The notes: a model not told the origin generated them from the sequence alone. A stretch of DNA of 64,000 bases from Pseudomonadota bacterium (GCA_021778015.1 JAJYCX010000011.1:6053-70052); one strand, 5' to 3'. Counted from the first letter of the stretch, positions 37,136 to 46,400 are shown. Program-made: numbers and translations.

Positions 37136-37964
37136 GATTGGATACCTCCGCCTCACGCAATAATTCGTTCAAAGCCACTTTTTCACGGGTTTTGGCGTCG
37201 ATCGTTTTGATGATGACGGCGCAATAGAGGCTATGACTGCCATTGGCGGCGGGTAATGCGCCTGGTACAACTACGGAACCCGCAGGTACGCGACCATAAA
37301 TGATTTCGCCTGTTTGGCGGTTATAAATTTTAGTACTCTGGCCTATGTAAACGCCCATAGAAATGACGGAGTTTTCCTCGACTATAACACCTTCTACGAT
37401 CTCCGAGCGCGCGCCTATAAAGCAATTGTCTTCGATGATAGTAGGGGCGGCTTGTACGGGTTCTAAGATGCCGCCTAAGCCTACACCGCCAGAAAGATGT
37501 ACATTCTTACCGACTTGAGCGCAAGAGCCTACCGTCGCCCAGGTATCCACTAAAGTACCGCTGTCTATGTAAGCGCCGATATTTACATAAGAAGGCATGA
37601 GGATTGTATTTTTAGCAATAAATGCACCTTTACGAACTTGTGCCGTAGGCACAGCACGTATGCCCTGAGCCGCCCAATCAGCAGCCGTATAGTGGCTAAA
37701 TTTTAGTGGGACTTTGTCATAATATTGGGTAAAGCCGCCGTCTACAATATGGCTGGGAGTAATACGAAATGACAATAATACCGCTTTTTTAAGCCAAGTA
37801 TTCACCTGCCAATGGCCATCGATTTTCTCGGCGATACGCTGGCGGCCGCTGTCTAGCTCCGCTATGACTTCATCCACGGCAGCGCGTATGGCGGACGGCA
37901 CGTTTTCTGGGCTGTACTCTAAGCGCTTGTCAAAGGCTTGTTCAATGGTGTTTTTTAGTATCAT
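37128..37964 (-). CDS. dapD: 2,3,4,5-tetrahydropyridine-2,6-dicarboxylate N-succinyltransferase
   Basis: 278 aa with a hexapeptide-repeat left-handed beta-helix region ([36 protein letters not shown]). Confidence 0.92.
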
Positions 37965-37981
37965 AATTAATATCCCATAGT

Positions 37982-38078
37982 GCGGCTGGTTGCGGATGAG
38001 TTTAACATGAAACTGTAAAAAAGTTGTATTTTAAAACATGTTGTGTGCAAAAATAGCTCAGAACAATGATATTAACCT
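37982..38078. repeat. Direct repeat R1 (dapD upstream region), partner of 39805-39903
   Basis: GCGGCTGGTTGCGGATGAGTTTAACATGAAACTGTAAAAAAGTTGTATTTTAAAACA... compared with GCGGCTGGTTGTGCGTGAGTTTAACATGAAATCGTAAAAAGGTTGTATTTTGAAATA.... Similarity decays over ~97 bp. Confidence 0.85.
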
Positions 38079-38181
38079 CAGCACCTATATTCCATAGACA
38101 AGATTGTTAAAGGTCTGATGGTATAAGCTATAGCATTCATATTGGTCAGAGCGCTTATCACTGCTCTATGGGCTATAAGTT

Positions 38182-42900: not shown

Positions 42901-43407
42901 AGAAAGGAAGCCCTCAGTCCTATAGAAAATCCTATCTTTTCCACGACGAGTAATACTGGACAACATAATCCCAGCTCTTTGAGCGATAATGTGTTTACTC
43001 CTGGTTCTGGGCCAAGTTCTGGTTCCAGTTCTAGCATTTCGAATGTCAGTCATTTTAAAAAGGAATTTGAATATTCCGATGACCCACATTTAGCTTTGCG
43101 TCAAGCTGCGGCACATGGAAATATAGAAAAATTTATGATGCTCATTCACAGCGGGCAAATAACAGATATTAATCGGCAAGGGGCTGGTTCCGGAAAAACA
43201 GCCCTTCATCAAGCAGTGTCCGCGGGAAAAATAGAAATCGTGAAATTACTACTTCAGTTAAACGCTAATACTACGATTTTAGATAGAGATGGCAAATCAG
43301 CACTACAACTCGCCAAAGAGAAAAATGATCCAGGCCTATGCCAATTATTAGATCCGAGTAAAATGGGTTTCATTATGAATAGTATAATTAGGATAGTAGC
43401 ACATTGA
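39919..43407 (+). CDS. 1162-aa multidomain protein: basic N-tail, RelE/ParE-like module, SF1 UvrD-like helicase, Sel1 repeats, ankyrin repeats
   Basis: Walker A GVAGSGKTS (40501-40527). Motif II VDEAQD (41191-41208). Then VSYRS, KGRQFKVVLVY and VSLTRA in canonical order. Sel1 repeats such as AANGGHPQAQYLIAKDLF and SAKQGFSSALYDLARLYYHGDG. ANK repeat GKTALHQAVSAGKIEIVKLLLQLNAN. ATG 39919 is preferred over the track's TTG at 39847. Confidence 0.8.
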   Translation: MGKKRHSHNHNHKQKPKRKISKVASSSGSGSPINTKNPIYYWDGVDFPQELQEEYKKALEQLKAGQYQALHLEKLHVHNGDGRDYWSIRTNQKGRLILTTEFIEGKRVLVFVRALPNHEYAKWERSLSSASKSSPIPDQQEVQSSSAEEVQFKDILQAVDTTQVTGLKSYLGKYILLSQPQNDIVEIDGPCIVNGVAGSGKTSSALFLASRWMEENPHGEVICIASSAAVVKGMKDEYESAQTAKRKEEKDKEEEKGKEEERVEKTVQFKTYAEWLCTDGGHKELKSRETILNEFEKWWEDYSQSFKERYRNQEKTRNRSQNKGHYSSSSSSLNFFTHADAPEVRFMEMDAMQLYQEFRKISNKDDYVKKGMGSFIAQGEEQQALRAVIYAAYEACPDSIKEESEDFADLQEQSKDEQAITLVLVDEAQDLSKKEIENLIQWSAARGLRIVFFRDSLQTVRDASSNYLLIKDGFVKIMKDSSLRQQEIKEINLPVSYRSFPAAKPWVDGWLDIRKKLTEKMDKTEVIQLEVKVNEHSAPGSVHWITEIDAQKQALFNAGCKNPSFAVVAPKEYLDEAKRKFNTQLVLTPEEIKGRQFKVVLVYRPFSPDIFKDASRILEQDRTKHSIRKQNNNNDLITSCNEVFVSLTRADSQMIIYQPEEHGINTLVNNLTKDKVVDVKADFSLILEKSDASEEKWLQEAKMQLRSGYREKAEEIIACHVNKKELKKEFIEFRMGYVEAKKEPSCIVSQQEELKREKSKGKKEAKKDSGKVVNYANGPERNLDSIEQSEREVADSIYAEVKEKGEIFLPQLIALAERGNIYAQYKLYCFYDEEPSFKERYRVEAAKLCLSAANGGHPQAQYLIAKDLFFRAAELRALSNKADYEKIIFDYEKEAFDRCLVAVQSNDPRAQHLLCMLYGEGRGVELNMTESFFWCAKSAKQGFSSALYDLARLYYHGDGTEKDLEQAEFWCREAIGQGHQKAIFLLLSIEAEKSRKEALSPIENPIFSTTSNTGQHNPSSLSDNVFTPGSGPSSGSSSSISNVSHFKKEFEYSDDPHLALRQAAAHGNIEKFMMLIHSGQITDINRQGAGSGKTALHQAVSAGKIEIVKLLLQLNANTTILDRDGKSALQLAKEKNDPGLCQLLDPSKMGFIMNSIIRIVAH

Positions 43408-43485
43408 AAGTTCTTGAAGTATCGTGGATATGAAACGAGTCAGTATTCAATATGTGCTTTTTCAATAAGGCACAAGCCGTTACGA

Positions 43486-46400
43486 TTAGCGTAGTGTTTC
43501 CAGCAAATGTATCAGCCAGGGCAAACGCTGGGCGCTCTTTTCCACTTTAACATGAAAACGCAGTATTTGTGCGTTTTCTAGTTTATAGTTCTTAGGGTCG
43601 CTTTGAATCAATTCGATGAGCTTGGCTAAATCGATATTGGGTTTAGCTGCAAATTCTATTTTTCCACCCTGTTCGTTGGCATCAATGCGGGTAATGCCCA
43701 GAGACTTGGCTTGTAACTTTAAAGCAGTGACGGCAAATAAATGGCGCGTGGGTTCAGGCAATAAGCCAAAGCGGTCTATCATTTCGATTTGCAAGGTATC
43801 CAAATCGGCATCATTCTTGGCGGCAGAAATGCGTTTGTATAATACTAGGCGCTCATGGATGTCGGGAAGATAATCATCTGGAATTAAGGTGGGTAAATTG
43901 ATTTTAATTTCTGTAGTATCGGGCCAAAAGTCTATAGGCTCACCATTTTTTAAGCTATTAACGGCTTTTTCCAATAATTCACTGTATAGGGTTAAGCCTA
44001 CGCTTTGAATTTGCCCGCTTTGATCTTCACCTAATAATTCCCCCGCACCGCGAATTTCTAAATCATGGGTCGCTAAGATAAAGCCTACACCTAAGGCATC
44101 GTATGCGGTGATGGCTTCTAAACGTCTTTGCGCATCTTTATTGAGTAAAGCAACTTCTGGTACGAATAAATAAGCATAGGCTTGATGGTGCGAACGGCCT
44201 ACGCGACCACGCAGCTGATGCAATTGCGCTAAGCCAAAACGATCGGCACGATTAATTAAAATCGTATTTGCGGTGGGTATATCGATACCGGTTTCGATGA
44301 TGGTGGTGCATACCAACACATTAAAACGTTGGTGATAGAAGTCTCCCATGATGCGTTCTAGTTCACGTTCATGCATTTGCCCGTGAGCGGTGTGGAAGCT
44401 GGCCTCCGGGACCAGGGTTTGCAATTCTTGTGCTATACGTTCTATTTGTGACACATCGTTATGTAGAAAATACACTTGGCCGCCGCGATGAATCTCGCGC
44501 AAAATGGCTTCGCGTATTAAGCCACTGTCATATTCATGTAGAAAGGTTTTAATGGCTAAGCGACGCGGTGGCGGCGTACCTATAATGGATAATTGGCGCA
44601 GATCGGCAATGGCCATATTCAGTGTGCGCGGAATAGGCGTTGCGGTTAAGGTTAATATATCAATTTCCGCACGCAGGGTTTTTAATTTTTCTTTTTGTTG
44701 CACGCCAAAACGATGTTCTTCGTCGATGATCACCAAACCTAGGTTTTTAAATTTAACCTGCGGTTGAATCAATTTATGGGTGCCAATAACGATGTCTACA
44801 GTACCTTCGGCCAATTGCGCCAAAATAGTGTGTTGCACTTTAGTCGATTGAAAGCGCGATAAGGCGGCGATACTGACGGGCCAATCGGCAAAGCGATCTA
44901 GAAAAGAAGCATAATGTTGTTCAGCCAAGAGGGTTGTGGGGACTAAGATGGCCACTTGTTTTTTATTCATAACGGCAATGAAAGCGGCGCGCATGGCGAC
45001 TTCCGTTTTACCAAAGCCCACATCGCCACAGACTAGGCGATCCATAGGCGTATCCGCAGCCATATCGGCAATCACCGCATCTATGGCTTGTTGTTGGTCT
45101 ACCGTTTCTTCAAAGGCAAATCCTTGGCAAAATTGTTGGTATTCCAATTCGTCTATATTAAAGTGATGGCCCGTCAAAGCGCTGCGCTTGGCGTATAAAG
45201 CCAATAATTCAGCAGCGGTGTCGCGTGCTTTGGCCAACGCCTTTTCTTTGGCTTTCTGCCATTGGGCGCTACCCAAATGGCTTAAGGATACCTCTTCTGA
45301 ATGAATGCCGCTGTAACGCGAGATAAAATGCAATGAAGATACGGGCACATATAATTTGTCGTTATTTTCATACGATAATAATAAGTATTCGCCTTTTTGT
45401 CCGCCTGCTTCTAACACCACTAAGCCTTCATAACGACCTATACCATAATCCAAATGCACGACGGCTGAACCCAATGATAAATCAGCGAGATTGGCAAAAT
45501 CATCGCTGTAGCGTTTTTCGCGACGCGACCTTTCTCTTTCGCTGACGCTGACTTTCTGTCCCCATAAACGCGCTTCGTTGATCAAGGTAATGTGTAAAGG
45601 CGGACAACTGAAATCATCATATAATGGAGCGGCGATAATCGCTAAGGGCAATGTGCTTTGTAGAAATTCATCTAGGCTATTTACCGCGGGTAATTCTAAA
45701 CCCTGTTTGGCAAAAAAATCTTGATTAAATTGTCGTCGCCCCATGCTGTGAGCGCAGATCAATAAACGCATAGTGTTTTGTTGTTGATAATCGATGATAT
45801 CTTGCAATGCAGATTTTTTCTGTGGATGTATAGTGAGTATTGGCGCTGCTATTAACGCAAAACCCGTGCTATTTTCCAATACGGTATCGCTTAACAAACA
45901 AGCTTTGTTTTCAATTTTTTGTACGAGTGCTTTGAATTCGGTTGGGCTTATGAATAAACGCTCTGGCGGTAATAAGGGCCGTGAATTGTCTAGTTGGCGG
46001 CGTTCATAGCGATCTTGCCATTCGTTGGCGCAGGCTTGACTGAGATCGTCATAGTCTGCAGGCAGAAAGAAATAACTATTTTGATGCAGATAATCGAATA
46101 AAGTATGCGTATGCGGGTGAAATAACGGTAAATAATATTCGGCGCCACCGGGAATAAGACCATTTTGTATGCTTTGATAAAAAGGGGAACGCATAGGATC
46201 GCCGTTGAAGGTTTCACGCCATTGACGCCTGAAGAGTTGTAAACTGTCATCGTCTAAGGCAAATTCGCGTGCGGGTAAAATGTCTATGGTAGAGACTTTT
46301 TCTAAAGACAATTGGCTGTCGCAATCGAAAGTGCGGATGCTGTCGATCTCATTATCTAATAAATCGATACGAAAGGGGGTGGTGCTGCCCATGGGGAATA

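Follow-up and report, generated by a model that had tools for sequence, protein, structure and literature searches.

Orphaned 3′ regions in the effector loci of Rhs, contact-dependent inhibition (CDI), and type VI secretion systems (T6SS) have been attributed to homology-facilitated illegitimate recombination (Kirchberger et al. 2017, PMC5361080). Hot spots of horizontal gene transfer (HGT) that lie between core genes, carry no mobile-element genes, and have recombining flanks have also been described (Oliveira, Touchon, Cury & Rocha 2017, PMC5635113), and in Escherichia coli both e14 and phage 21 integrate into the 3′ end of icd (PMC6379469). Here, we analyzed a 64,000-nucleotide (nt) stretch of DNA from a Pseudomonadota bacterium (GCA_021778015.1, JAJYCX010000011.1:6053-70052), hereafter called the window, in which two foreign genes are wedged into the junction between mfd, encoding the transcription-repair coupling factor, and dapD, encoding tetrahydrodipicolinate N-succinyltransferase. 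The host lineage is an uncultured gammaproteobacterium. The locus adds another case to a known kind, namely recombination-driven hot spots with displaced 3′-end relics, and involves no new enzymology.

The locus resembles orphaned-3′-end arrays in having a conserved anchor gene, in gaining a new 3′ end plus cargo with each acquisition while the older end is displaced as a relic, and in lacking a recombinase. The corresponding parts present in the window are the anchor mfd, its functional end (43486-43545), a displaced end termed relic B (39709-39768), an older relic (39771-39843), and the joint between the two relics (39769-39770). In contrast to those arrays, where a variable toxin domain is renewed, the renewed end here is the conserved C terminus of the housekeeping protein Mfd. 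The cargo consists of independent genes on either strand, and the oldest relic appears to have been retained for a putative function in dapD expression. As in the HGT hot spots, one and the same core-gene interval differs in accessory content among close relatives and carries no integrase or transposase, and the flanking core genes may have recombined. However, the flanking genes here originally overlapped, so that every insertion had to duplicate the junction, and datable relics remain, which are usually missing from such hot spots. With e14 in icd the locus shares an insertion at the 3′ end of a coding gene, a surrogate end that keeps the gene intact, and a displaced pseudo-3′ end on the far side. 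However, e14 has its own integrase and collinear attL and attR sites, whereas no recombinase is found here and the middle site consists of two partial copies.

Displaced mfd ends between mfd and dapD

A genome scan with Mfd recovered eight related uncultured gammaproteobacterial lineages (68 to 97% amino acid identity), and a DapD search and context look-ups added more. In L001, L003, L004, L006, L164, L165, and L170, the two genes share one strand and mfd leads straight into dapD, with an overlap of 23 nt where genes were called (L164, L165, and L170). None of 137 more distant Mfd loci had dapD within 10 kb of mfd, and a metagenome scan with the Mfd C terminus, which returned only relatives of ≤63% identity, is informative just for the clade specificity of the adjacency. 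The mfd-dapD adjacency is a trait of this clade. An earlier reading made from the window alone (the sequence-only reading) had named relatives in which the two genes were never adjacent as the finding that would speak against it; the synteny comparison instead found them adjacent and even overlapping. Because of this overlap, there was no ancestral "dapD upstream region," and all of the intervening sequence is inserted.

In the window, the junction reads dapD (minus strand, 37128-37964), a gene encoding 458 amino acids (aa) (minus strand, 38182-39558), a 1162-aa SF1-helicase-like/Sel1/ankyrin gene (plus strand, 39919-43407; hereafter the helicase gene), and mfd (minus strand, 43486-46917). This is the order given by the sequence-only reading, and Pfam agrees for the annotated genes: DapD (278 aa) matches THDPS_N_2 and Hexapep; the helicase protein matches AAA_30, SLFN-g3_helicase, Sel1, and Ank; and Mfd (1143 aa) matches TRCF, CarD_TRCF_RID, UvrB_inter, DEAD, and Helicase_C. 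The window dapD is 91% identical at the nucleotide level to those of L001 and L002. The 458-aa gene starts with ATG, and an alternative TTG at 39564 gives the 460 aa of the earlier reading.

Two repeat pairs had been claimed for this interval, a relic of the mfd 3′ end and two copies of a repeat termed R (R1 and R2), and alignment, a repeat search, BLAST, and profile E values show that both are real. An mfd-like stretch at 39708-39767 is 85% identical over 60 nt to the true mfd end at 43485-43544 in the repeat search; the homology stands, but the eight mismatches in 57 positions counted before become 10 differences in 60 nt on recount. When the intervals were searched by nhmmer with a nucleotide profile of the mfd 3′ end built from eight lineages, this relic B (minus strand, 39709-39768) matched profile positions 145 to 200 (E = 8.6e-12), and it is 94% identical to the functional mfd end of L002. 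Translated in the mfd frame, relic B reads LEKSDQRLPWLMHLLEILR followed by a stop (19 codons and TGA), and the true end reads VEKSAQRLPWLIHLLETLR followed by a stop (the last 19 codons and TAA, 43486-43545). In the functional 3′ end (minus strand, 43486-43557), these codons are preceded by a short block, motif O (TTTCATGTTAAAGT, 43544-43557), and relic B begins directly after the position of motif O. The other pair, R1 (37982-38036) and R2 (39805-39859), is 87% identical over 55 nt in the repeat search, which BLAST widens to 79% over 97 nt. A degenerate 31-nt R pattern has just two sites in the window (0 expected from 100 shuffles). The idea that R is a dispersed repeat was rejected, as it has only two copies in 64 kb and is confined in other loci to the mfd-dapD junction. 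The divergence of the two pairs is comparable (15 to 21%), and the proposed topology holds: two tandem units, each consisting of an mfd end, a cargo gene, and R, are joined at one novel joint.

R had been interpreted as a second copy of the ancestral dapD upstream region. This part of the earlier reading did not survive, because the inner part of R is a decayed mfd 3′ end and the outer part goes with the helicase gene. The inner half of R2 and the adjoining "junction" form an older, collinear, decayed copy of the mfd 3′ end (minus strand, 39771-39843). Its 39783-39843 segment is collinear with profile positions 124 to 185 (nhmmer E = 4.8e-5), BLAST also matches the old relic to the mfd ends of L003 and L004, and inner R2 without its conserved core still beats 999 of 1,000 shuffles against ancestral mfd ends (Smith-Waterman p = 0.001). 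In R1 (minus strand, 37982-38078), which lacks about 29 nt of R2, nhmmer picks up the core alone (E = 0.13). The outer half of R2 (R-left, 39844-39903) is tied to the start of the helicase gene and is conserved beside its start codon in L169, L166, and L167; an mfd origin was rejected for this half, which was mostly no better than shuffles against mfd. As judged from these matches, R is a composite: one part is helicase-linked foreign sequence, and the other is an old copy of the final ~85 nt of mfd that has decayed. Likewise, the CATAAT before R2 (39799-39804), previously taken for a relic of the dapD start, sits within the longer decayed mfd copy, which in L169 goes on for ~40 nt more and reaches the true dapD ATG.

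Neither R1 nor R2 showed hairpin or attC-like folding, which was no better and mostly worse than in shuffles (z from −0.07 to +1.9), and no Rfam family was found in the window region or in the L166 variant. R as a structured or attC-like site was rejected on these grounds. An integron-like cassette array was discarded as well, R1 and R2 having no attC-type hairpin and no integrase being found, as was a Tn7-like transposon at a gene 3′ end, with neither a transposase nor inverted repeats at the unit ends. TATGG occurs twice as part of the tail sequence common to both R copies and not as a 5-bp target duplication. A dif/Xer-like reading of TTATGTTAAA rested on a likeness to the XerD arm of E. 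coli dif; the other arm is mismatched, and the reading was dropped. In L166 (7880-8010, equal to L167:4687-4817), a ~135-nt G+C-rich sequence without an Rfam match (best E = 0.34) replaces the old mfd relic between an O-like TTTCATGGTACACT and the dapD tail.

The helicase unit is the older of the two, because the helicase/Sel1 gene stands alone between mfd and dapD in L169 (DapD 91% identical) and in L166 and L167 (92%) and because the old relic is uninterrupted in L169. There, a single dapD-linked R is 90% identical to R2, and the relic continues unbroken (…GATTGATTTAAATGGATAGGGATT ATG) into dapD. In the window, the old relic ends after TATGG (39771-39775) and is followed by two filler bases (joint J, 39769-39770) and relic B; the tail matching the interrupted R2 relic, TATGGGATATTAATT ATG in mfd sense, is located after R1, where it forms the dapD leader (minus strand, 37965-37981). 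This leader agrees with the ancestral …GGATACCAATC ATG and GGGACATAACCC ATG and with the L166 tail TTATGGAATATTGATT ATG. Joint J is missing in L169. As read from the alignments, these comparisons show that the segment comprising relic B, the 458-aa gene, and R1 was inserted later, between the old-relic tail and dapD, through one non-homologous joint. Moreover, R1 and R2 have a derived CAACCAGCCGC in common where L169 has CAGCCAGCTGC and the ancestral sequence is CAGCCAGCAGCG, which makes R1 a late paralog of the window-type R (R2). The outer half of R1 has decayed fastest, as is expected because no helicase gene adjoins R1. A derived …TACGCT(A/G)AT stop context is common to relic B, the functional mfd end, and the L166 allele, and thus relic B also comes from an mfd end that already postdated the helicase insertion.

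No cargo-gene remnants were found by tblastn and blastn in any of the four spacers. The stretch that separates R1 from the 458-aa gene at its 3′ end (38079-38181) has no helicase remnant or any other match, that upstream of the 458-aa gene (minus strand, 39559-39708) is unique sequence without a helicase-gene remnant, and that between the convergent helicase gene and mfd (43408-43485) holds no remnant of the 458-aa gene. A simple tandem duplication finds no support, no genes or remnants being common to both copies. The joint also creates an ATG in frame with relic B and with it a 21-codon mini-open reading frame (mini-ORF), MALEKSDQRLPWLMHLLEILR followed by a stop (39774 to 39709, minus strand), upstream of the 458-aa gene; it is a predicted ORF only.

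Recurrent insertion and motif O

The mfd-dapD interval had been suggested to be a recurrent insertion site, and related lineages indeed carry differing cargo there. Among relatives, the junction is empty or holds ~180 nt, a KAP NTPase and a toxin-antitoxin pair, an ankyrin gene and an unknown gene, the helicase gene, or the helicase and 458-aa genes. L002-type genomes, found in several samples, have a PifA/QatA-like KAP NTPase with a RelB/YafQ pair, and this cargo comes with its own well-preserved mfd relic on dapD (E = 7.7e-19), which starts at profile position 124, as R does. The ankyrin and unknown genes occupy the L007 junction, and the ~180 nt, which include a hairpin, that of L008. Helicase alleles of 1012 to 1207 aa lie between mfd and dapD in L166, L167, and L070, and L169 has an incomplete copy of at least 826 aa upstream of dapD, at which the contig ends. 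Searches with Pfam, NCBIfam, and PADLOC of all cargo proteins (window, L002, and L007) and of their neighbors across 22 to 64 kb found no integrase or transposase in any insert or within ~15 kb in the window. The helicase unit occurs in lineages whose dapD and mfd resemble those of the window less than the dapD and mfd of empty or KAP-bearing lineages do. This incongruence suggests that units or empty alleles moved between lineages via flank recombination.

The 14-mer TTTCATGTTAAACT (motif O) is intact in R1 (37999-38012) and R2 (39822-39835), with the relic around it only ~65% mfd-like. An O-like copy lies 63 to 176 nt ahead of a conserved marker (16 nt inside dapD) in every marker-bearing lineage, including the L002 and L007 relics; that of L007, TTTCGTGTTAGACT, is 67 nt before the marker. 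The sequence ATGTTAAACT is unchanged in all eight lineages with mfd directly upstream of dapD, altered in three of the four functional mfd copies separated from dapD by an insertion (Fisher p = 0.018, with lineages that are not fully independent), and kept, or present as TGGTACACT, in every dapD-linked relic. The block includes TGnTAAACT, which we read as an extended −10-like element. We infer that motif O is a putative extended −10 promoter of dapD embedded in the mfd coding sequence. Were the dapD promoter located within the mfd 3′ end, only junction-duplicating insertions would keep both the Mfd C terminus and dapD expression. An embedded promoter could also explain why independent relics start just upstream of the block and why the block survives, with no need for a site-specific recombinase.

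Possible histories of the two-unit locus

We hold it to be about an even prospect that the mfd-dapD junction is an accessory-gene slot whose second unit arrived by anchored additive recombination between relatives. The ancestral mfd ran into dapD with a 23-nt overlap. The helicase/Sel1 gene was then inserted, with a fresh mfd end on mfd and the original last ~85 nt displaced but still on dapD. This displaced piece is the inner half of R, decayed save for the 14-nt block, which may be the extended −10 promoter of dapD. The segment from relic B through the 458-aa gene to R1 was added next, between the old-relic tail and dapD. This last step could have been additive, homology-anchored recombination of two close relatives sharing the mfd-end and R flanks, one with the helicase gene and the other with the 458-aa gene in its place. 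One crossover, in mfd or dapD, would have been homologous and the other, at the joint, illegitimate, and no site-specific recombinase would have been involved. Such a process has been proposed for the orphaned 3′ regions of Rhs/CDI/T6SS loci (PMC5361080). The structure calls for an illegitimate joint that ties a site ~14 nt ahead of the dapD start codon to the mfd position directly behind the core.

The same joint could also be the product of an in-situ non-homologous tandem duplication in the lineage of the window. It would have taken in the complete unit, beginning right behind motif O in mfd and ending ~14 nt short of the dapD ATG, and the dapD-proximal helicase copy would later have been replaced by the 458-aa gene. 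This course, which we regard as possible but doubtful, would account for the single novel joint at which one unit passes into the next, for R1/R2 and relic B/functional end being mutually closest paralogs relative to L169 and L166, and for the similar divergence (15 to 21%) of the two pairs. However, the units share no cargo and hold no remnants of each other's gene, a direct duplication of 3.8 kb is unstable yet would have had to persist until the replacement, and the final state is already present in all same-species contigs. Relic B, moreover, keeps its frame and stop (4 aa changes among 10 substitutions; p about 0.04 under random substitution) and is somewhat less changed than the neutral outer half of R1 would predict. 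As an intermediate, a stable allelic variant is more plausible than a direct duplication that has to persist, and together with the frame of relic B and its few changes, this mildly favors additive recombination over duplication in situ. Reciprocal loss following duplication of an ancestral two-gene unit (helicase plus 458-aa gene), which the sequence-only reading had offered for the unrelated cargo, is compatible with the topology alone and appears very improbable. The single-unit lineages L169, L166, and L167 hold the helicase gene only, with R directly on dapD and the old relic of L169 unbroken, tblastn found no partner-gene remnants in any spacer, and, with just 15 nt from R2 to the helicase start codon, two gene-boundary-precise deletions would have been required.

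Two site-specific integrations at an att site mimicking the mfd 3′ end, comparable to e14 in icd, would leave the repeats as attL, attR, and a middle hybrid; TTTCATGTTAAA is the candidate site, and the recombinase would be encoded elsewhere or lost. Such integrations would fit the direct repeats derived from the target 3′ end that flank each insert, the common start of the independent L002 relic and of R at profile position 124, and the 12- to 14-nt block identical in all copies, and e14/icd provides a precedent (PMC6379469). We nevertheless judge them improbable, since neither the inserts nor their surroundings encode a recognizable recombinase, R does not fold into a hairpin, and the outer R half is the helicase upstream region and not a shared element end. 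The middle site, moreover, is made up of two partial copies (profile positions 124 to ~195 and then 145 to 200) instead of one collinear hybrid, and the shared left boundary and conserved core are equally explained by a need for the dapD promoter.

Several observations weigh against additive recombination between relatives. The predicted single unit, with mfd, its end, the 458-aa gene, R, and dapD in succession, was not found among the contexts examined, while helicase-only lineages were (L166 and L169). By hand count from the alignments, the functional mfd end is about as altered as relic B, which weakens the argument from frame preservation. The joint has no clear microhomology, just a 2-nt filler. 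A simple sigma-70 scan did not flag motif O, the promoter being inferred from conservation only; in this AT-rich region, the consensus scan was uninformative (17 sites versus 18.8 expected). Finally, L070 and L167, from one sample (ERZ27236847), are reciprocal mosaics of window-type and L166-type sequence that both switch at the outer edge of R2, inside one 34-nt shared stretch (window 39900-39933). On both sides, L167 matches its parental types at 100% identity, and L070 departs from its right-hand type at two positions only. The two are likely assembly chimeras and were withdrawn as proof of recombination at the R2 edge.

A bolder form of the promoter idea, which we consider unlikely, is that the terminal ~95 nt of mfd, in which the dapD promoter would be embedded, form a docking site that renews itself and needs no recombinase. 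Every surviving insertion would have to duplicate these nucleotides, and each would thereby restore a working mfd end and leave a relic that bears the promoter. The relics would then be maintained regulatory modules instead of scars, in an integron-like array, in which foreign genes each stand behind a promoter copy and the R2 copy would drive the 458-aa gene, possibly via the mini-ORF.

Cargo proteins, neighboring variation, and meaning

The 1162-aa protein resembles ankyrin- and Sel1-bearing proteins of amoeba-associated bacteria. The 458-aa protein is uncharacterized, with no match in Pfam, NCBIfam, PADLOC, or PDB. AlphaFold2 gives a confident all-alpha model (pLDDT 84) without a PDB fold match. 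Its family comprises ~190 clusters at 50% identity, distant members of which match Pfam DUF6829, and its invariant residues include H205-W-R-H208 (HWRH motif), E213, and N214. Homologs of the gene occur in unrelated genomic contexts. That the protein is a hidden recombinase was rejected on the basis of the all-alpha model, the missing PDB match, the only distant link to DUF6829, and the lack of any likeness to recombinases.

Variation is not restricted to the mfd-dapD interval. The mfd 5′ flank is variable too: in the window (46918-50761), it holds two ankyrin genes (47056-48813 and 48899-50761) before an ADH/enoyl-reductase pair, in L170 (2411-4138) 2OG-Fe(II) oxygenase and Sel1 genes, to which L159 (1-2871) adds HigB/DUF4143, and in L166 (15-1170) a DDE transposase. 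The strain contig L068 differs from the window by ~7% at 46228-47151 (the mfd 5′ end and upstream) and by 0.3 to 0.5% elsewhere; the cluster suggests a recombination tract where mfd begins. In L066 (643-4073; metagenome-assembled genome GCA_027457045.1), mfd was called as two ORFs (663 and 450 aa), with four clustered differences from the window at 44917-44935 that reflect a frameshift or an assembly error. Another variable interval lies downstream of ddl. In the window (29467-34421), genes for a formate-tetrahydrofolate ligase and a 1062-aa ankyrin protein follow, of which L163 has the former and lacks the latter; in L170, ferritin and an unknown 281-aa gene lie ahead of putA.

The mfd-dapD locus records nearly base by base how accessory or effector-like genes entered between overlapping housekeeping genes with neither disabled, and the duplicates of the junction preserve the order of events. 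A promoter within the coding sequence of the mfd 3′ end, if true, would determine which insertions are viable and which relic sequence stays. The idea of an embedded promoter is directly testable; otherwise, the locus is an ordinary recombination hot spot whose history is unusually legible.

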